Assembly (NCBI GenBank): GCA_016195725.1
Contig: JACPZB010000066.1
Span: 1-60,271, forward strand
From: Deltaproteobacteria bacterium
GTDB taxonomy: Bacteria > Desulfobacterota > GWC2-55-46 > UBA9637
Length of the DNA stretch: 60,271 nt
Direction of reading: 5' to 3'
This document shows positions 26,379 to 35,113 of this stretch, piece by piece. Position 1 is the first letter of the stretch. Each line of letters begins with the position of its first letter. A program made the position numbers and the translations under genes. Below the pieces are notes generated by a model, which worked only from the letters and a program-made list of their open reading frames with translations, did not search any database and was not told the DNA's origin.

Positions 26379-27094
26379 GAGATAACGCCGGCCCCACGTT
26401 TATGTGTTTTTAATCCAGACAAACCTGAAATTTACACAATCTACTTTATACCATCAGGGCCTTCTTCTGTATTCTGAATGCTGACTCATGGATTCCATTA
26501 TTTCCACCCCTTTTATTAGCTGCAGGTTCATGGGTGTTTCTTTCCATTCCTCTAAGTACGACTTCCTCGAAAGATGTTTATTTTATAATCACCGATGGTC
26601 AAAAATCAGGCAGCTTTTTCGATGAGCAACATATTTTCAGTGTAATATGTTGATTTTTTACTGATAGTGAACGATGGCATTAAATTTGCATTGTTTTATG
26701 TTGGAAATTACTTGATTCACTTTTGAGAGTTGCAGACCGGTTGCGAGTCAAGACATAAACATTTTTGGGAATTTTTTCTTTGTCCGGGACCGGCCTTGCG
26801 ATGTTAGCAAGCATGGGATTGTTTTGCTGTTGTTTGTAAAGGGACAACAGCACCTATAGTCAGCGACATAAATTTGTAGTCTGCCGATCCCGTTTAAATA
26901 CATAACGGGACAAATTTATCGGTGATTTTAAAATACGTCCATAAATGGGCACACTATATCTACTTATTTTTATCGTTCACTATAAAGGGCAGTGCAACAA
27001 AATTTAGATCGTTTGCCCTTGCTCCACTCTTTTCACTACAGCAGATATGGCGAGGGTGATGGGGTAAAATGTAACGATTGTTTTTTCGTCTGTA

Positions 27095-27448: not shown

Positions 27449-28777
27449 ATGAAGAAGAATTTTACGTACGCGCTTATCTTTTTGCTCTTATGCGCTGTTT
27501 ACTCCAGCAGTTTTGCCGCGGATGAAGGGCTGCCGCTTCCACTGAAGAGTTATCATAAAAGGAATACGTCTGTTACCGAGAAGTGGAAGGAGGCGGGGAG
27601 GGGGTACTTCAATCCATACGAGTATAAACCTCCCAAGGTTGAGGGAGCCGGTACTGACTGCTTAAAGTGCCACAAGGTTTTGACTCCTACGGTGGTAAAG
27701 GACTGGGAGGACAGCAAGCATTTCAAGAAAGACGTGGGCTGCACGAATTGTCATAACGACCATTCAAACCTCATCATGCCGACTCCTGATACTTGCGGAA
27801 AGTGCCATGCCGCGAGGACAATGCAGCACAGGGGAGGGAAACATGGTGTAGGCTGGAAAAATGTAATTGCGGCTGGAGGCAAAGGGGGCGCGGCAGGCCG
27901 ATACCTTGCCCAGTATTCCGAGATGCAGGAAGGCGGCTGTGGGACATGTCACAGCATTGAGACTAAATGCGATTCATGCCATACAAGACACGCCTTCAAA
28001 CCGAAAGAGGCGAGGGAGCCCGATGCGTGCGGCACATGTCACATGGGTCCCGACCATGCCCAAATTGAGTATTACGAATCCTCAAAACACGGTGTCATCT
28101 TTAAGGTTGAAGGCAAAGGTTTTGAAGACGGCGGCAGGGCGCCGACATGTGTGACATGCCACATGTCCGGAGGCAATCATGATGTGAGCCAGGGCATTTC
28201 CATAGGCGGGGCATCTCAAGGCAAATTCATCGGCCAGACAAACAGCGGGAACAGTCAGAGAAAAAACCCCAACGGGATATCGATGAATGAGATTACAGGC
28301 GAGGATTTCACGCGGGAGAGGGACAAGATGCTGCGTGTTTGCATTAACTGCCACTCAAAGAGATTTGCGGAGCATAAGCTTTCAATCGCGGACGGTGTAA
28401 AAATAGCGAGTGATGCCGTTGCCGGCGAGGCTATAAAGGAGATTGTTGACCTCTATAACTCAGGGCTTCTTAACCCGATGCCGGATGACCGGCCTGAGAA
28501 CCCATTCGCTGGTTTTAACTTAGTGCTTACATCGCACCAGCTTTATGAGCAGACATCCGGCATAGAGGCGTTGTACTTTGAGATGTACAAGTTTGACCTT
28601 GTGCATGCATGGAAGGGCGCTTATCACTTCAGTCCTGACTGGACACACTGGTTCGGCAACGCGCCGATGAAATTGAAACTGGCAAGGATAAAAGACATGG
28701 CAAACCAGTTAAGACGCCTTAATAAATTGGAGCTCAAACTCAACGTCAAACCGGAAAAGGTTGAGTTCGGAGAATAG
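27449..28777 (+). CDS. Octahaem cytochrome c of the hydroxylamine oxidoreductase (HAO) family, probably without the cross-link tyrosine
   Basis: Signal peptide MKKNFTYALIFLLLCAVYSSSFA follows a GGAG site. There are 8 CXXCH motifs. Collinear blocks resemble Nitrosomonas HAO (YKPP; MPTPDTCGKCH; CGTCHSIETKCDSCHTRHAF..REPDACGTCHMGPDH..YESSKHG; APTCVTCHM; CINCHSKRFA). Confidence 0.85.
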   Translation: MKKNFTYALIFLLLCAVYSSSFAADEGLPLPLKSYHKRNTSVTEKWKEAGRGYFNPYEYKPPKVEGAGTDCLKCHKVLTPTVVKDWEDSKHFKKDVGCTNCHNDHSNLIMPTPDTCGKCHAARTMQHRGGKHGVGWKNVIAAGGKGGAAGRYLAQYSEMQEGGCGTCHSIETKCDSCHTRHAFKPKEAREPDACGTCHMGPDHAQIEYYESSKHGVIFKVEGKGFEDGGRAPTCVTCHMSGGNHDVSQGISIGGASQGKFIGQTNSGNSQRKNPNGISMNEITGEDFTRERDKMLRVCINCHSKRFAEHKLSIADGVKIASDAVAGEAIKEIVDLYNSGLLNPMPDDRPENPFAGFNLVLTSHQLYEQTSGIEALYFEMYKFDLVHAWKGAYHFSPDWTHWFGNAPMKLKLARIKDMANQLRRLNKLELKLNVKPEKVEFGE

Positions 28778-28782
28778 CGGCG

Positions 28783-29406
28783 ATGAGACATTTATTGCCA
28801 TTCATGATTATATTGATAACGCTCTCATCCGCGGGGGCGGCTGTGCTGCCGCGCGCCGGCGCATGCGGAAGCTGTCATGTTGATAACTTCCGTGAATGGG
28901 AATCTTCCGCGCATTCACGCTCAATACTGGGGGAGCGATTTCGCAAAGCGCTGAAAGAGCATCTCCTCAGGGATGGCACGGACGAGGGTAGTTTTTGTTT
29001 CAGATGCCATGCGCCTGAGTTGATTATCTCCGGGGATGTCTTTGAAGCTACGAAGATGGCGCTGAACGGGAAGGCGCCGGCCGAAGGGGTTACATGCGTT
29101 GCCTGCCACAGTGTGGAATCCGTTAAAGGGGGGAAGCCTGTATACGACCCAGGCGATTTTCCCGGCTATCACAGGGTGAAAGACCTGAGGTCTCTTGACA
29201 GGGCCGGGCTCTGCACGACCTGCCACAGCGTTTATAAGCAGAAGAATATTGTCAGGGAAGAGAAGAGCGGTTTTTTAATGCGCAATGTTTCATGGGTCAC
29301 GGAATTATTCCACGCAAGAAGAAGCAAGAAGAGCGACCACGGTTTTTCTGACACCATTATTGTGGAAAAGGAAGGGGAAGGATGTCCGGGCGTCAAGAGA
29401 GATTAA
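28783..29406 (+). CDS. Membrane-anchored or secreted tetrahaem cytochrome c (NapC/NrfH- or c554-like)
   Basis: N-terminal hydrophobic helix and 4 CXXCH motifs (CGSCH, CFRCH, CVACH, CTTCH). The first motif context, CGSCHVDNFREWESSAHS, resembles NrfH/c554-type haem 1. Confidence 0.75.
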   Translation: MRHLLPFMIILITLSSAGAAVLPRAGACGSCHVDNFREWESSAHSRSILGERFRKALKEHLLRDGTDEGSFCFRCHAPELIISGDVFEATKMALNGKAPAEGVTCVACHSVESVKGGKPVYDPGDFPGYHRVKDLRSLDRAGLCTTCHSVYKQKNIVREEKSGFLMRNVSWVTELFHARRSKKSDHGFSDTIIVEKEGEGCPGVKRD

Positions 29407-31040
29407 ATATTATCTTATTGCGTGGACTATCAGCGTTAGGGGCATTTCTTTTACTGATATCAGCCGCTATGGCTCGGTCCGGCAATTTCAGTGAGGGAGA
29501 AGGGAGCAGGGAGTGCAGGAACTGCCATCAGGAAAATAAGAGACCGGACAGATATGATGCCGTCAGACCCTGGCTCAAGAGCCGGCATGCCGAGGCAGGT
29601 GTTGCGTGTGTCGACTGTCATCTTAAAAAAGAGATAGAGAAAGAGGATTTTTATAAGGCCGTTACCGCAACGACGAAGGAGAGCGCCCACGCCTTTATGG
29701 TGGAGAGGCCGGCCGCGAAAGAGACAAAGATGTATTTTGTCGGCGTATGCGGCGGGTGCCACAAAGAAAGGCTTGACGAGTTCAATGCGAGTGTGCACGG
29801 CATGGCAAATCAGAAAGGGAAAAGCGTAAGCTGTATTGACTGTCACGATCCGCATAGTGTCTCTGCGGCATCCAGCAGGGATTCACGGCTGTACAAGGGG
29901 AATGACCTGAAAACCTGCGGGAGATGCCACAAGGATATGCTGGACTCATACATGAGCACATTTCACGGCAAACAGTTTGTCCTCGGCAATACCCTTGTGC
30001 CGACATGCGTATACTGTCACATGGGGCATGAATTGCCGCCGGATGCGCCGGGATCGGCCATCAATGCTAAGAATGTAGGCAATATCTGCGCGGGCTGCCA
30101 CGGCGAGGCAGTCGCGCTGGGACCGGATGCGGACGAGATGATGATACACTCTCTCAGCAGGGATTCTACAAGAAAGGTCATCCACTTCAGGGACCCTGTC
30201 TCGTTCGGGCCGTTCTCCATCGCCTCTGTAATAAACTCATCGTATATCGCGATGATCATAGGGGTCGTAGGTTTCTTTACCCTTATGTCAACCCGTGACT
30301 TTGTAAAAAAGACAAGGATGGCGCATACCCACAAACATGATAACGGCAGCGAAGAAAAGACGATAAAGCGTTTTTCTCTCGCATGGAGGTTTCAGCACTT
30401 TTTCTGGGCAATCTCATTTATCGTTCTTGCTGCAACAGGCCTGTCCCTCAAGTTTCCGGATTCGATATTCTCGAGGGCTATCGTGTGGGTTGCAGGAGGA
30501 CCCGCGATGAGGTCTGTTGTCCACCGCATCGCAGCGGTTGTTTTTATAGGAACGGCGCTGGCGCATCTGAGCCCGTATATTTTGTTCCGCAGGCTGCCTG
30601 GAAAGGTCATTCTTGCAAAAAAAGATTTCCTCGACGCACTGCTGCATCTCAGCTACTTGTTCGACAGAACCGAAAATATGCCGCTCATGGGGAGATATAC
30701 GTGGTATCAGAAGCTGGAATATTGGGCCACGGTTGTGGGCGCCTGCATAGTCATATCAACCGGTTTCCTTATGTGGGGCTTTGCCCCCCTGATCAAGAAG
30801 ATACCCATTTCGCTCTTATATTACGCGCAGATGATGCATGGGTGGGAGGCCATACTCGCGGTTCTCGTTATCTTTGTGCAGCATATATATCAGACTGTTT
30901 TAAACCCGCTTGTTTTCCCGATGGATTTCTCATGGCTTACCGGAAGGACGAAATACGCGGTGATGGAACATGAACATCCCCTTGAGTTGATGGAGATTGA
31001 GTCTAAGAAGGGAGGCGGAGATCGTGAAGGCGCATCTTAA
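29382..31040 (+). CDS. Fusion of a periplasmic heptahaem cytochrome c domain with a FdnI/HydC-type dihaem cytochrome b membrane domain (CbcL-like)
   Basis: 7 CXXCH motifs in residues 45-240, then about 5 TM helices. Conserved His sit in TM segments (RFQHFFW; HRIAAVVF; MHGWEAILAVLVIFVQH), as in formate dehydrogenase gamma or NiFe-hydrogenase cytochrome b. Confidence 0.75.
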   Translation: MSGRQERLNIILLRGLSALGAFLLLISAAMARSGNFSEGEGSRECRNCHQENKRPDRYDAVRPWLKSRHAEAGVACVDCHLKKEIEKEDFYKAVTATTKESAHAFMVERPAAKETKMYFVGVCGGCHKERLDEFNASVHGMANQKGKSVSCIDCHDPHSVSAASSRDSRLYKGNDLKTCGRCHKDMLDSYMSTFHGKQFVLGNTLVPTCVYCHMGHELPPDAPGSAINAKNVGNICAGCHGEAVALGPDADEMMIHSLSRDSTRKVIHFRDPVSFGPFSIASVINSSYIAMIIGVVGFFTLMSTRDFVKKTRMAHTHKHDNGSEEKTIKRFSLAWRFQHFFWAISFIVLAATGLSLKFPDSIFSRAIVWVAGGPAMRSVVHRIAAVVFIGTALAHLSPYILFRRLPGKVILAKKDFLDALLHLSYLFDRTENMPLMGRYTWYQKLEYWATVVGACIVISTGFLMWGFAPLIKKIPISLLYYAQMMHGWEAILAVLVIFVQHIYQTVLNPLVFPMDFSWLTGRTKYAVMEHEHPLELMEIESKKGGGDREGAS

Positions 31041-31572
31041 CCCAAAAAATGCGGTTGCATTTTTTGGCAAAACAGTGCTGATAATCGCGGCGATTCTATT
31101 GACATTGCCTGTTCATACATGGAGCGATTCCTGCGACGAGTGCCATCTTCACAGGTCGCTTGTCAGGGAATCTGACGGGGAATCTGTAACAGATGCGGAC
31201 GCGCCGGGAACGCTTGCCGGATTCCATATTATGGAATTCAAAGGCGAGGAACGGACATCGGCATGCCGCAGGTGTCATGGAAATTTGCAGGAGTCCAATA
31301 AACTTCCGCGTTCGGAGGCATGCCTCAAGTGCCATACGAGGGGCAAGGCAGCGCAGGGGGATCGGCGCATGGTATTCCATGCGGAAAAGAATCACTGGCC
31401 TCTGGAAAAGGTGTCGTGCGCTGACTGTCACAGGGCGCACATAAAGGGCAACCCTGCCGTAAAGTTTCTTACGACAAATGTGGTCAGCGTATGCAGCGGA
31501 TGCCATGAAAAAACTTTTAATTTGAAAGAAACTGCGTTGAAGGAGAGCGCTTTGCCTGATTCAGGCCAGTAG
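31024..31572 (+). CDS. Pentahaem cytochrome c
   Basis: 5 CXXCH motifs (CDECH, CRRCH, CLKCH, CADCH, CSGCH). The GTG at 31024 lies 8 nt after GGAGG, and the alternative GTG at 31075 lies after the hairpin element. Hydrophobic signal LIIAAILLTLPVHTWS. Confidence 0.7.
   Translation: MKAHLNPKNAVAFFGKTVLIIAAILLTLPVHTWSDSCDECHLHRSLVRESDGESVTDADAPGTLAGFHIMEFKGEERTSACRRCHGNLQESNKLPRSEACLKCHTRGKAAQGDRRMVFHAEKNHWPLEKVSCADCHRAHIKGNPAVKFLTTNVVSVCSGCHEKTFNLKETALKESALPDSGQ
31037..31072. repeat. 36-nt hairpin element, copy 2 (TTAACCCAAAAAATGC-GGTT-GCATTTTTTGGCAAAA)
   Basis: 34 of 36 nt are identical to copy 1, and both differences are in the loop. It starts at the stop codon of the preceding gene. Confidence 0.85.
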
Positions 31573-31595: not shown

Positions 31596-32909
31596 ATGTC
31601 TTCAATTGAGCAGATAGGGGAAATCAGGGTTGCAATCGATACCGTATGGGTAATACTCTCGGCCGTTCTTGTTTTCGTAATGAACGCCGGTTTTGGAATG
31701 CTTGAGTCGGGCCTGTGCAGGTCAAAAAATACCGTGAATATATTTTCAAAGAACATAGTCATCTTTGCCATAGCAGGCCTTACTTTCTGGCTTGTCGGAT
31801 TCGGCCTCATGTTCAGCGATGGCTCGTTTTTCATCGGCTCGACAGGATGGATGCTCACGGGTGAGGATAACAGTCCCGCCGTGGCCGGGCAGTATTCCGG
31901 TATTTTCAGCTCGCTGGGCTGGACTGCCGTTCCCCTCTACGCAAAGTTTCTTTTCCAGATGGTATTTGTAGCCGCCTCGGCGCACATTGTGTCCGGCGCG
32001 GTGTCAGAGAGGATAAAGTATTTTTCATTTATTGCCTTTTCCGTTGTGCTGGTCGCCATCATCTATCCCATAACAGGTCACTGGATATGGGGCGGAGGAT
32101 GGCTGGATTCGATGGGTTTTGTTGATTTCGCCGGCTCCACGGTGGTCCATTCGGTAGGAGGATGGGCAGCGCTTACCGGCACGATCGTGCTTGGCCCGCG
32201 TATGAACAAGTTTACCAGGGACGGGAGAATAAACCCCATTCCCGGCCATAACCAGACAATGGCTGCGCTTGGTATGTTTCTGCTCTGGCTCGGATGGTTC
32301 GGTTTCAACGCCGGAAGTGCAATGGCCGCAAAACCGGAGACGATAGCGCTGGTTGCCGTCAATACCACACTGGCGGCCGCAGCCGGCGTTTTAAGCGCGA
32401 CAATCGTATCAGAGATACTCATAGGCAAACCGGACCTGAGCATGATGGTTAATGGCGCGCTTGCCGGCCTTGTCGCAATTACTGCCGGCTGTTCAGCGGT
32501 AAACATAGGCGGCGCTGTGATAACAGGCCTTGTGGCCGGCATACTTGTGGTCTACTTCATAATATTCCTTGACAGGCGCAGGATAGACGACCCTGTAGGG
32601 GCAATACCCGTGCATCTGATAAACGGCATCTGGGGCACTGCGGCCGTGGGGCTGCTTGACCGGGAGGCGGGGCTCTTCTATGGAGGCGGCATATCGCTTT
32701 TTATTACGCAGCTTATCGGGATTGCGGCTGTCGGCGTTTTTGTCGGCGGAGGCACGTATGTTCTCTGGCGCCTTATCGGTCTTGTTATGGGACTGCGGGT
32801 AAGCCAGGAAGAAGAGTATGTCGGACTCGACATAAGCGAGCACGGCATGGAGGCATATCCTGATGCATCCGGACCCAGGGGTTTATACGGAAAACCGGGA
32901 AAGTTCTAA
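31596..32909 (+). CDS. amt: Ammonium transporter (Amt family)
   Basis: 437-aa ORF with about 11 TM helices. It has AGFGMLESGLCRSKN, FAGSTVVHSVGGWAAL and WGTAAVGL signatures. AGGAGG precedes the ATG, 23 nt after the pentahaem gene. Confidence 0.9.
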   Translation: MSSIEQIGEIRVAIDTVWVILSAVLVFVMNAGFGMLESGLCRSKNTVNIFSKNIVIFAIAGLTFWLVGFGLMFSDGSFFIGSTGWMLTGEDNSPAVAGQYSGIFSSLGWTAVPLYAKFLFQMVFVAASAHIVSGAVSERIKYFSFIAFSVVLVAIIYPITGHWIWGGGWLDSMGFVDFAGSTVVHSVGGWAALTGTIVLGPRMNKFTRDGRINPIPGHNQTMAALGMFLLWLGWFGFNAGSAMAAKPETIALVAVNTTLAAAAGVLSATIVSEILIGKPDLSMMVNGALAGLVAITAGCSAVNIGGAVITGLVAGILVVYFIIFLDRRRIDDPVGAIPVHLINGIWGTAAVGLLDREAGLFYGGGISLFITQLIGIAAVGVFVGGGTYVLWRLIGLVMGLRVSQEEEYVGLDISEHGMEAYPDASGPRGLYGKPGKF

Positions 32910-32972: not shown

Positions 32973-33650
32973 ATGGCCTGGCTAATATTCTTTGTTTTTT
33001 GGATTGTCTTTCTCTGGCTCTATAAATACAGCGAGCGGCACAAGCAGCACAGGATTCTGGAGATGCAGAAGGACAGGCATTCGGACTACGGCCAGATGAA
33101 AAAAGAGTTCGACGAGAGCATGGAGCTTTTCAATACCACTGCTGATTTCAAAGCCAGGCTTGCGCATATTGATAAGGCCATAGAATGTCTTAAGTGGATG
33201 GAAGAGATGATCCCCGGCAAAGAACATTCCTCTGAAAAGCTTCCGCAGATAATGTCGCTCAAGCAGGCGCTGATATATTCCGGCATAAAGGCGCAGTTCG
33301 AAAACGCAATGAATAACGCGAAAGAGGGAAAGCTCCTCGTGGCAAAGGTCAATCATGCAACCGCCGCTCAATCCATCCTCAACAAAGGGCTGAGCCTCGG
33401 CATTGACAGAAAGACCCTTGCGAGGGAGATTGAAGAGGCCAACAGTTTTATCAACAGGATTCAATACGATGAATACTTTTCAAAGGCAAAAAAAGAAGAG
33501 GAAAAAGGGAATATAAAGACAGCCATAGATCAGTATCAGGTGGCGCTTTACTTTTTAAAAATGACCAGCATGGGGGGCGAAGACCATGAATCGCTGGTAA
33601 AAGAGATGGAAGGGAGGATACAGAAACTTTATGAAAGAGGCATTGTTTAA
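32973..33650 (+). CDS. Hypothetical membrane-anchored helical protein
   Basis: 225-aa ORF with an N-terminal TM helix (WLIFFVFWIVFLWLY); the rest is predicted helical. GGAGG precedes the ATG. Confidence 0.55.
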   Translation: MAWLIFFVFWIVFLWLYKYSERHKQHRILEMQKDRHSDYGQMKKEFDESMELFNTTADFKARLAHIDKAIECLKWMEEMIPGKEHSSEKLPQIMSLKQALIYSGIKAQFENAMNNAKEGKLLVAKVNHATAAQSILNKGLSLGIDRKTLAREIEEANSFINRIQYDEYFSKAKKEEEKGNIKTAIDQYQVALYFLKMTSMGGEDHESLVKEMEGRIQKLYERGIV

Positions 33651-33670: not shown

Positions 33671-35113
33671 ATGGAAACATCTGACATGCAGGAAAGGATG
33701 AAAGGTTTCGGGGAGGCCATAAAAAAAACGGAATTTCCGTGGAAGGCAGTCCTGTTTGTTTTGATTACAGGGTTTATTGTCGTAGGCGGCCTGTTCGGTC
33801 TCCTGGAAATCAATGAGGCCGGCTACATTACGGTCAAGCAGTCCCTGTTGACAGGCAAGGTTACAATCGTTTCAGAGCCAGGTATGTTCTGTCAGTGTTT
33901 CGGAACGATAACAAAATACAGGGAGGCGGGAACCTTCAAATTCGCTCAGACCGAAGAAGCAGCCGGAGGCAAGGAAAAGGCGAGGCCTAAAAAGGGCAGG
34001 GGGAGCGACCCGGAGGTATCCGATGAGATAGAGGTGCGATTCAACGATGGTTCCATTGGGTGGATATCCGGAATGGCGCTTTTCGATCTTCCCAAGGATG
34101 ATGAAAAACTCGGGCTTCTCCATATGAAATTCAGAGGCTTCAGGAATCTCATTGAGGCCGGAATAATGCCCACTATTAAAGAGTCGGTTGTGCTCACGGC
34201 CGCGCTCATGAGCTCCGGAGAGTCATATACGACAAAAAGGGCCATATTCTCGGAGTGGTCAAGGGATCAGATTGAGAAGGGCACATATATGACCGAGGAA
34301 TTGGTAAAAGAGGAAAAGGACCAGAGGACCGGAGATGTTACCAGAAAGAGCTTTGTCAAGATAAAGACCGATAACAGCAGGCTCCTGAGAAATGAAAACC
34401 CCCTTGAGAGGTACGGCATAAAGTTCAGACAGTTCCAGGTAACGGAGATCCGCTATGAGCCTGAGACGGAAAATCTTATAAAGACAAAAATGGAGGCGAT
34501 GCAGAAAACCATCGCAGCCAAGATTTCCGCAGAGAGGGCAATACAGGAAAGGCTTGCGGCAGAAGAGCTCGGCAAAAAGAACGTTACAGTCGCCGAATAT
34601 GAGGCCATGATAAAGAAGAAGAAATCTGAGGTCGAGGCAGAAGAGGCAAAGGCAGTGGCCGTCATTGAGGCGAATAAGAAACTTGAGGTGGGAAAACTGG
34701 AGAGGGAAAAGGAGACCAATGCCGCCTCAAAAAAAGTTGAGATTGAAAAACTTGAGAAGGCCAGGGCGGTTATAGAGGCGCAGAAGGCGCTTGACGTGGC
34801 GAGAATAAACGCACAGAGCGCTGAAAGCAAGAAAAGGGCGGACGTCCTCGAAGGGGAAGGGCTTGCTGAAAAGAAAAAGCTTATTTACAAAGCCGATGGA
34901 GCGTTACAGCAGAAACTTGATGCTTATGTCAATGTTATGACAGTTCTCGCAAAGGAGCTTGGCAAACAGAAGTGGGTGCCTGATATCACCATGAACGGCG
35001 GGCCGCATGGAACCGCGGACGGGAACGCGGCAATGGGCTTTATGAATCTGTGGATGATGAAGACCGCCAAAGAGCTTGGAGTTGAACTGGTGAATGAGAA
35101 AAAGAATCAGTAA
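33671..35113 (+). CDS. Membrane-anchored SPFH/flotillin-like protein with long coiled coil (tentative)
   Basis: 480-aa ORF with an N-terminal TM helix, then a band-7-like beta region (GYITVKQSLLTGKVTIVSEPGMF) and an A/E/K-rich coiled coil of about 150 aa. Confidence 0.45.
   Translation: METSDMQERMKGFGEAIKKTEFPWKAVLFVLITGFIVVGGLFGLLEINEAGYITVKQSLLTGKVTIVSEPGMFCQCFGTITKYREAGTFKFAQTEEAAGGKEKARPKKGRGSDPEVSDEIEVRFNDGSIGWISGMALFDLPKDDEKLGLLHMKFRGFRNLIEAGIMPTIKESVVLTAALMSSGESYTTKRAIFSEWSRDQIEKGTYMTEELVKEEKDQRTGDVTRKSFVKIKTDNSRLLRNENPLERYGIKFRQFQVTEIRYEPETENLIKTKMEAMQKTIAAKISAERAIQERLAAEELGKKNVTVAEYEAMIKKKKSEVEAEEAKAVAVIEANKKLEVGKLEREKETNAASKKVEIEKLEKARAVIEAQKALDVARINAQSAESKKRADVLEGEGLAEKKKLIYKADGALQQKLDAYVNVMTVLAKELGKQKWVPDITMNGGPHGTADGNAAMGFMNLWMMKTAKELGVELVNEKKNQ

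Follow-up and report, generated by a model that had tools for sequence, protein, structure and literature searches.

CbcL of Geobacter joins a domain with nine CXXCH haem-binding motifs to a HydC/FdnI-like dihaem cytochrome b (PMC6295460). Its homologues, grouped as CbcL/MtrH/MtoC, come from 15 phyla, carry 3 to 23 haem motifs in 416 to 1034 residues, are at least 28.6% identical within the published set and occur in Fe(III) reducers and Fe(II) oxidisers; they are thought to be bidirectional, and the characterised members act in extracellular electron transfer (PMC6295460). CbcL is interpreted as a menaquinol oxidase whose quinone chemistry, as the Bond laboratory argues, takes place on the side of the membrane opposite the periplasmic reaction; protons would then be released into the cytoplasm and no energy conserved (bioRxiv 10.1101/2022.08.31.506072). 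Here we describe a single-chain cytochrome of this kind (29382-31040, hereafter the fusion), in which seven c haems precede an FdnI-type cytochrome b domain and which is encoded in an operon with a hydroxylamine oxidoreductase (HAO)-like octahaem cytochrome c. The operon lies in positions 1 to 60,271 of contig JACPZB010000066.1 of a Deltaproteobacteria bacterium (assembly GCA_016195725.1); this whole stretch of DNA was analysed and is called the window.

Comparable modules have been proposed in the nitrogen cycle. The hydrazine synthase cluster of Kuenenia stuttgartiensis comprises trihaem kuste2854, heptahaem kuste2855, the FdoI-like cytochrome b556 kuste2856 and a sigma-54 regulator (PMC6423088, PMC8862662), and kuste2855 and kuste2856 are proposed to act as an electron transfer module that supplies hydrazine synthase from the quinone pool (PMC8862662, PMC6423088). 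A reverse-operating hydroxylamine:ubiquinone redox module for ammonification has been proposed in Nautilia (PMC5276818), and Hao-based ammonification has been put forward for organisms without NrfA, each time with a different and unproven quinol link (PMC5317091, PMC5276818, PMC6896113). The quinol links proposed for HAO-like enzymes include NapC-type cytochromes, Rieske/b complexes, alternative complex III (ACIII) and anchored decahaems (PMC5317091, PMC6896113).

Comparison of the fusion with described systems

The fusion is a real inner-membrane bc-type cytochrome of the CbcL kind. Like CbcL (GSU0274 of G. sulfurreducens), with which it was compared by published description, it is one chain with an N-terminal periplasmic domain of multiple CXXCH motifs and a C-terminal HydC/FdnI-like cytochrome b domain that carries the ligands of two haems, and it has no iron-sulfur (FeS), flavin or molybdopterin subunits. 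It differs from CbcL in having seven c haems instead of nine and five predicted transmembrane (TM) helices after the signal peptide against six predicted in CbcL. The surroundings differ as well: the fusion sits in a nitrogen-cycle operon and not in an extracellular electron-transfer context, and neither mtrAB/mtoAB genes nor outer cytochromes were found at its locus.

In composition, judged by published annotation, the operon resembles the anammox module, which has a heptahaem c protein, an FdoI-like b and a small multihaem cytochrome encoded beside a nitrogen-converting multihaem enzyme. In the anammox cluster, in contrast, c and b appear in the annotation as two genes, and hydrazine synthase takes the place of the HAO-like enzyme as partner. 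A search with the b domain listed no protein named as an anammox protein. An anammox origin of the operon was considered and dropped: the nearest loci are from "Deltaproteobacteria" and gammaproteobacterial metagenome-assembled genomes (MAGs), and the genome has NirS, NarG and oxidase-family genes. The operon may provide a bacterial counterpart of the anammox module that is perhaps easier to study.

The hydroxylamine:ubiquinone redox module resembles the operon in encoding together an octahaem HAO-family enzyme, a c554-family tetrahaem cytochrome and a membrane cytochrome directed toward the quinone pool. Where that module has a NapC/NirT-type tetrahaem protein with an outer-face site, the window has a CbcL-type bc fusion with a putative inner-face site, and its operon adds a pentahaem cytochrome, an Amt transporter and an SPFH protein. 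Compared with the HAO/c554/cM552 set, the HAO-like enzyme has His in place of the cross-link Tyr, and no NapC/NirT-type protein is encoded.

The literature searched, which did not include most subscription journals, yielded no description of an HAO-like gene combined with Amt and a fusion of the CbcL type. The fusion itself belongs to a known kind of bc cytochrome; its fixed partnership with HAO-like, c554-like and Amt genes, together with a conserved sigma-54-type element, is an undescribed variant in the searched literature. It would extend CbcL-type bc cytochromes from metal respiration to the nitrogen cycle.

The periplasmic heptahaem domain

A script counted exactly seven CXXCH motifs in the fusion (residues 45, 76, 123, 151, 179, 209 and 236) and, scanning also for CX3-4CH and CXXCK variants, found none of these; the chance expectation is about 0.003 per protein of this 552-residue size, a rough estimate from typical Cys and His frequencies. 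Conservation was assessed in an alignment of 16 close homologues (59-90% identity) and in a wide alignment of 60 homologues reaching down to about 27% identity. Among the close homologues, the seven motifs and exactly seven further His of the c domain (69, 103, 139, 158, 195, 216 and 268) are invariant, and in the wide alignment each of the motifs and distal His is at least 90% conserved. Because seven conserved non-motif His accompany the seven CXXCH, we read all seven c haems as bis-His haems of an electron-transfer wire, and the pattern fits a domain that would have no catalytic site. The last distal His, H268, stands 15 residues ahead of the TM helix, and the last c haem is therefore expected at the membrane surface.

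Orthologues are defined here as proteins at least 59% identical to the fusion. In all of them the hydrophobic N-terminal segment ends in an AxA-type site (AMA/RS, AEA/KP or AIA/QT, the slash marking the presumed cleavage), and the linker behind it varies in length and has a model confidence (pLDDT) below 50. For these two reasons, the N-terminus is read as a cleaved signal peptide. The same AxA-type sites and variable, low-confidence linker before the first haem motif ruled out an NrfH-like anchor or second quinol site at this end. The fusion does give a partial match to PF03264 (NapC/NirT; 39.1 bits, covering profile positions 38-80 of 174 only) and one to TIGR03153 (NrfH; 41 bits, below the cut-off of 134), both of which probably reflect shared haem-packing motifs.

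Topology and the FdnI-type cytochrome b domain

Hydropathy places hydrophobic segments at residues 10-30, about 283-303, 340-358, 380-400, 447-467 and 486-506. The loops between them alternate in charge, with nine Lys/Arg in 302-337 and eight in 401-446 against two each in 359-379 and 468-485, which by the positive-inside rule puts the c domain in the periplasm.

Residues 330-510 match the cytochrome b family PF01292 with 37.6 bits (gathering cut-off 30.1). TIGR01583 (FdnI) also matches (E 1.2e-14), with 54.7 bits against an equivalog cut-off of 115.85, and the NCBIfam formate dehydrogenase gamma models match at 1e-14 to 1e-9, all well under their equivalog cut-offs; there is no FdnG or FdnH in the operon either, and the fusion is not an equivalog of FdnI/FdoI. 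Searching the PDB with phmmer, the best solved-structure match is E. coli FdnI (1kqf_C, E 4.9e-5, about 20% identity). The AlphaFold2 model of the fusion (mean pLDDT 75.9, and 85-95 within the b domain) agrees: Foldseek aligns it to 1kqf_C with E 1.7e-6, probability 1.00, a target-normalised TM-score of 0.83 and a root-mean-square deviation of 3.3 A, and ranks HyaC, the cytochrome b of hydrogenase-1, second with a TM-score of 0.54.

In the phmmer alignment, H339, H381, H486 and H501 of the fusion face FdnI residues 18, 57, 155 and 169, and all four are invariant in 60 of 60 homologues. We take these FdnI residues to be the haem ligands of the Fdn-N structure, with 18 and 169 presumably binding the cytoplasmic-side haem and 57 and 155 the periplasmic-side one. 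We accordingly read H339/H501 as the probable ligands of the cytoplasmic-side haem and H381/H486 as those of the periplasmic-side haem. FdnI residues 110-113 together with His169 line the site of menaquinone or of the inhibitor 2-heptyl-4-hydroxyquinoline N-oxide (HQNO). Q443-K444 of the fusion aligns with FdnI Q113-K114, which adjoins that presumed pocket, and the Q-K motif and His501 are conserved. FdnI and the fusion thus have in common a four-helix dihaem b in which the four His occupy matching positions and a Q-K motif precedes helix 3, whereas the fusion lacks the FdnG/FdnH partners. FdnH presumably contributes a TM helix in Fdn-N; the corresponding helix of the fusion belongs to the same chain.

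Two family-conserved elements of the fusion have no FdnI counterpart in the alignment. His395 (30564-30566) lies 14 residues past H381, on the cytoplasmic side of the second b helix, and the cytoplasmic tail carries MEHEHPLEL (residues 528-536; 30963-30989), of which M528, E531, H532, P533 and E535 are at least 90% conserved in the 60 homologues. These elements could serve as an additional ligand, for docking, or at a site for quinone or protons. Most of the invariant polar residues of the b domain, namely R330, R336, D415, R438, K444, E446, Y447, Y503 and the EHPLE tail, appear to sit on the cytoplasmic side, which would agree with a functional site there.

A preliminary description, made from the sequence alone, had proposed an open reading frame (ORF) with seven CXXCH motifs at residues about 45-240 behind a signal or anchor sequence, then one TM helix, a basic cytoplasmic loop and four more helices with the ligand His of an FdnI/HydC-like cytochrome b, the whole likened to CbcL. 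The script counts and alignments, the hydropathy profile and the profile and structure matches bear this architecture out, as does the published account of CbcL (PMC6295460); the match of the C-terminal half to a cytochrome b family is significant and the predicted topology puts the c haems on the periplasmic side.

The operon

The operon genes share one strand and are separated by -25 to +63 nt, the start of the fusion gene overlapping the tetrahaem gene upstream by 25 nt (Table 1).

Table 1. Coordinates in the window of the fusion gene, its encoded domains and the surrounding operon
Feature	Position	Strand	Basis or remark
Candidate sigma-54 (-24/-12) promoter element TGGCATTAAATTTGCA	26675..26690	+	TGGCAT-N5-TTGCA
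HAO-like octahaem cytochrome c, Tyr-less, Sec signal peptide	27449..28777	+	8 CXXCH; PF13447 112.9 bits
Tetrahaem cytochrome c, c554 family, probably soluble periplasmic	28783..29406	+	207 residues; 4 CXXCH; PF13435
Fusion ORF	29382..31040	+	552 residues; ATG 29382 behind purine-rich ribosome-binding site GGAAGGGGAAGG; TAA 31038-31040
Fusion residues 1-30, signal peptide (probable AMA/RS cleavage)	29382..29471	+	hydrophobic segment 10-30; orthologues with AxA-type sites
Fusion residues 31-278, periplasmic heptahaem c domain	29472..30215	+	7 CXXCH and 7 distal His
Fusion residues 279-303, single TM helix into cytoplasm	30216..30290	+	hydropathy; AlphaFold2 model helix at 280-317
Fusion residues 304-337, basic cytoplasmic loop	30291..30392	+	9 Lys/Arg in 36 residues (302-337)
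Fusion residues 338-507, four-helix FdnI-type dihaem cytochrome b	30393..30902	+	PF01292, TIGR01583 and 1kqf_C matches
Fusion residues 508-552, cytoplasmic tail with family motif MEHEHPLEL, and stop codon	30903..31040	+	conservation in 60 homologues
Pentahaem cytochrome c, signal peptide, probably soluble	31024..31572	+	5 CXXCH; PF14537, PF09699
AmtB-type ammonium transporter	31596..32909	+	PF00909 397.6 bits
TM-anchored helical (coiled-coil) protein	32973..33650	+	225 residues; about 60% identity in L002, L003, L083, L084
TM-anchored SPFH/band-7 protein, long coiled coil	33671..35113	+	480 residues; PF01145 34 bits; kept in L001, L002, L003, L083, L084

The HAO-like gene probably starts at its ATG behind GAAAGGAG, while the listed ORF begins at TTG 27422. 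Its product matches HAO, HOX and HDH structures in the PDB at 1e-46 to 1e-35. The sequence WTHW aligns with WTYT of Nitrosomonas europaea HAO and places a His at the position of the Tyr, which we take to be the haem cross-linking Tyr of that enzyme.

The tetrahaem protein encoded directly upstream of the fusion is a c554-family member by its PF13435 score of 39.7 bits (cut-off 20.8) and stays below the cut-offs of the quinol dehydrogenases (PF03264, 19.9 against 24.1 bits; TIGR03153, 19.4 against 134). In the PDB, it aligns best with the N-terminal portion of a cytochrome c552 (5ze8_A). Its orthologues have an AxA-type site (AIQA/KELPRAESCGSCH) right ahead of LPRAxxCGSCH that looks like a signal-peptidase cleavage site, and the protein is therefore most likely soluble. 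On these three grounds, a NapC/NrfH-type quinol dehydrogenase was ruled out. The preliminary description had taken this protein for a possible second quinol-linked cytochrome that would make the quinone connection redundant or branched. We could not sustain that proposal, since the fusion is the only membrane-integral redox protein of the set.

The pentahaem gene probably starts at GTG 31024 behind AAGGGAGG, the listed ORF beginning at TTG 30997, and its orthologues have VVA/ADES-type sites that resemble cleavage sites. A hairpin, AAAAAATGC-GGTT-GCATTTTTT, falls inside its signal-peptide coding region at 31045-31066. No molybdopterin or FeS subunit and no cytoplasmic redox partner is encoded in the operon.

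Conservation and distribution

Orthologous loci were counted as L001/L082/L162, L002, L003/L084, L004, L005, L083, L151 and L163, and statements about operons cover those loci with enough flank. At every one of them, the haem counts 8-4-7-5 recur in the same gene order. The placement of the fusion in an HAO-type module, also part of the preliminary description, holds without exception there, and neither the window's operon nor the orthologous loci encode a NapC/NrfH/cM552-type protein. Amt comes next in every orthologous operon whose flank reaches it (73-95% identity), usually followed by the helical and SPFH proteins. The closest relative, L001 (89% identity), is without the gene of the 225-residue helical protein between amt and the SPFH gene (L001:5577-5706), a gene retained in the window and in the gammaproteobacterial operons.

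Scans of species genomes and metagenomes returned few close orthologues. The closest, at 89-90% identity, are two groundwater sequences labelled H14, one in a "Deltaproteobacteria" MAG and the other on a metagenome contig. Those at about 59-60% identity are from MAGs of Gammaproteobacteria, Acidiferrobacteraceae and Chromatiales (some with HyVt isolate labels) and from one marine sediment metagenome contig. In a library of 1.84 billion representatives from clustering at 50% identity, the whole orthologue group is one representative (1167 bits), the next protein scoring 258 bits at 34% identity, and the numbers of representatives that match the fusion are 257 up to E 1e-30 and 1476 up to 1e-10. 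The architecture is therefore common, while the HAO-linked subfamily is rare and well separated. Phyla named in the published survey (PMC6295460) contain hundreds of homologues built in this way, at 26-38% identity.

Among 40 relatives of the source genome, an orthologue was found in two of the nine from the same family; a third same-family genome has a distant homologue only, and none was found in the one same-genus genome examined. The operon block has a G+C content of 51% against about 44% in its flanks. This patchy occurrence, the higher G+C and the spread over two classes together indicate horizontal transfer of the operon.

Promoter element

Both strands of the window were searched with the strict sigma-54 pattern TGGCA[CT]-N5-[TA]TGC[AT], and the candidate element at 26675 is its sole match. 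The same element (TGGCAT-N5-[TA]TGC[AT]) is also present upstream of the HAO-like gene in delta- and gammaproteobacterial operons, at L001:16-31, L003:828-843, L005:3848-3863 and L084:5856-5871. Its distance to the HAO-like gene is about 770 nt in the window and about 190 nt in L001, a difference that we read as extra, apparently window-specific sequence between them. Promoters of the sigma-54 type are typical of nitrogen- or NO-regulated genes (NO, nitric oxide). The host genome has nine strong matches to sigma-54 activators, none of them within the window.

NsrR-like ATGCATTT palindromes were considered as a conserved operator and ruled out, the motif being absent upstream of the orthologous operons; we take it to belong to a hairpin repeat that seems specific to the window. 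Generic scans for sigma-70 promoters and terminators gave counts no higher than in shuffled sequence.

Host genome

The source genome (2.07 Mb, 90.5% complete) has a single HAO-like gene. It encodes a NarG (1367 bits, above cut-off), a NapA/NasA-like molybdoenzyme adjoining a large NIR_SIR protein (an assimilatory Nas/NirB-like pair), an arsenite-oxidase-like enzyme, a QrcB/ActB-like protein, a probable NirS with two further cytochrome d1-domain proteins, six haem-copper oxidase family matches and one Prismane-family (Hcp-like) protein. The four molybdopterin enzymes are on contigs other than that of the operon. With NarG, NirS and the Nas/NirB-like pair present, nitrite and NO should be produced. 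NrfA was found neither in the source genome nor in five other host genomes, nor was ammonia monooxygenase (AMO), the latter by a search without a positive control. The respiratory gene set, on contigs C15, C85, C105, C108 and C3, is unlike that of a classical sulfate-reducing deltaproteobacterium.

Proposed role and direction of electron flow

In the operon, nothing but the fusion offers a plausible connection from the HAO-like enzyme to the quinone pool. Its domain anatomy, conserved ligands, fold and topology signal and the conservation of the operon are observed; its quinone reactivity, the side of its quinone site, its partners, its direction and the substrate are what we infer. We favour, with moderate confidence, a chain in which the fusion delivers electrons from quinol to the HAO-like enzyme, which reduces nitrite, NO or hydroxylamine (NH2OH) to ammonium that is then taken up by Amt. 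After export and probable cleavage of the signal peptide, the heptahaem c domain would lie in the periplasm, one TM helix would return the chain to the cytoplasm, and four further helices would form the FdnI-type bundle with two b haems stacked across the membrane. Quinol would be oxidised at the cytoplasmic face, the quinone/proton site being placed as in FdnI, and electrons would pass first to the two b haems, then along the seven c haems and on, via both soluble cytochromes, to the HAO-like enzyme. Ammonium formed there in the periplasm would be imported by the co-encoded Amt, and the purpose could be nitrogen salvage or detoxification of NO or hydroxylamine. Because quinol oxidation at the inner face would release protons inside the cell, this step would be helped by the membrane potential and would conserve no energy.

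The reductive, ammonium-forming role is favoured because the enzyme is Tyr-less, NrfA was not found, the Amt gene is a fixed member of the operon and the promoter element is of the sigma-54 type. How Tyr-less HAO-like enzymes are linked to the respiratory chain is mostly guesswork, and the conserved operon names one complete candidate chain. The geometry of the fusion should make electron transfer sensitive to the membrane potential, which offers a model, open to testing, of how bacteria of sediment and groundwater may carry out Hao-based ammonification or the reverse process.

Several points weigh against this proposal. In the b domain, the FdnI pocket residues N110 and G112 are replaced by T440 and Y442, and the side of the quinone site is suggested by likeness to FdnI. 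Geometry of the FdnI type is best known from energy-conserving donor:quinone redox loops; reversed, it wastes membrane potential, which seems needless for an acceptor as oxidising as nitrite. With NirS and an assimilatory Nas/NirB-like system present, it is not obvious why a further route from nitrite to ammonium would be needed, and the failure to find NrfA says little, since the majority of genomes are without it.

The same complex could run in reverse, the HAO-like enzyme oxidising hydroxylamine, hydrazine or NO and the electrons passing via the c and b haems to reduce quinone at the cytoplasmic face. It would then form, as formate dehydrogenase-N does, one half of an energy-conserving redox loop, a hydroxylamine:quinone module whose charge separation is built in. 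We regard this as a serious alternative, if an unlikely one. The b domain is specifically FdnI-like (see the Foldseek scores for FdnI and HyaC above), and the gene order of HAO-like, c554-like and quinone-reactive cytochromes follows that of haoA-cycA-cycB in ammonia oxidisers. The host has candidate electron sinks in several genes of the haem-copper oxidase family. Fdn-N geometry serves periplasmic oxidation with cytoplasmic quinone reduction (bioRxiv 10.1101/2022.08.31.506072), and energy is conserved only in the flow from periplasm to quinone; that Fe(II) oxidisers have CbcL/MtoC homologues just as Fe(III) reducers do also points this way (PMC6295460). Yet the HAO-like protein lacks the cross-link Tyr that marks oxidising enzymes, AMO was not found in the six host genomes (by the uncontrolled search mentioned), no source of hydroxylamine or hydrazine is evident, and an ammonium importer suits the product of a periplasmic enzyme better than its substrate.

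It is improbable that the fusion is a general quinol oxidase for periplasmic or extracellular acceptors, as CbcL is, with an HAO-like neighbour acquired by co-transfer and no dedicated partnership. The characterised members of the family serve extracellular electron transfer (PMC6295460), and distant homologues mostly stand without an HAO-like neighbour (see below); within the orthologous clade, however, co-occurrence is complete over two bacterial classes, with genes that overlap or nearly abut, the operon has no porin-cytochrome or outer-membrane cytochrome genes, and the clade is a single isolated cluster at 50% identity (1167 bits, then 258).

Least probable of all is a b domain that does not react with quinone and is a mere TM electron relay or anchor between the periplasmic haems and a cytoplasmic partner: the residues N110 and G112 that we take to line the FdnI pocket are not conserved, and the MEHEHPLEL tail with the cytoplasmic-side His395 could form a docking or ligand site, but the operon encodes no such partner, the Q-K motif and His501 are conserved, and to our knowledge all characterised PF01292 members with this four-His pattern are quinone-reactive.

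More speculatively, and at rather low odds, the operon may be a self-contained, horizontally mobile nitrogen module that connects its HAO-family enzyme to quinone via an FdnI-type transmembrane dihaem relay and so couples the chemistry of that enzyme directly to the membrane potential. If true, this could take the form of an energy-conserving oxidation of a nitrogen intermediate without AMO, which would be undescribed, or that of a potential-driven ammonification feeding a co-assembled Amt, perhaps organised by the SPFH protein.

Wider family and split relatives

A tree of the b domain (quick method, 144 rows, rooted on FdnI with a very long branch) places the HAO-linked clade of eight rows (Shimodaira-Hasegawa-like approximate likelihood-ratio test, SH-aLRT, 94) outside a 128-row clade (support 97) that holds most of the fusions sampled, including the long ones of Methanoperedens, Anaeromyxobacter, Nitrospira, Ignavibacteria and others. 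Two more small groups fall outside the 128-row clade, namely split forms of Hydrothermarchaeales and 4-haem fusions (L085). At L085:4506-7168, the 4-haem/b fusion is preceded by a 450-residue c552-like pentahaem protein.

The split cytochrome b of Hydrothermarchaeales is 44-49% identical to the b domain of the fusion. Its cluster at L034:4264-7045 (also in L043 and L048) consists of a 504-residue octahaem protein, a 187-residue c subunit ending in a TM helix and a 243-residue b (49% identical), and a stomatin-like SPFH gene stands directly upstream (L034:3244-4014). Here the TM helix is the C-terminal anchor of a separate c subunit (L034:5806-6369), and we conclude that the TM helix after the c domain of the fusion is the equivalent of such an anchor. 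Other split arrangements are an 11-haem, 942-residue protein with a separate b (L154:6063-9595) and, in a genome of the source's class (L164), a 5-haem subunit and b beside a 439-residue c552-like pentahaem protein. Identity to the b domain of the fusion is 35-44% for b proteins that stand alone and for those carrying a PSCyt1 domain at the C-terminus. Fusion and fission of the c and b parts seem, from these arrangements, to have occurred repeatedly.

The distant homologues of the fusion (26-33% identity; Methanoperedens, Anaeromyxobacter, Ignavibacteria) are mostly without an HAO-like neighbour. Two loci, L006 and L089, depart from this: there an octahaem protein is encoded 5-6 kb off within large multihaem clusters. 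These clusters, L006:97-10073 in a Methylomirabilota MAG and L089:4562-17132 in a metagenome contig, contain an HAO-like octahaem, a 9-haem protein and a CbcL-like fusion with 13-17 haems, and may represent an independent association of HAO-like enzymes with the fusion family. Both also encode a protein of about 360 residues that resembles, by its N-terminal sequence, a cytochrome b of the bc-complex type.

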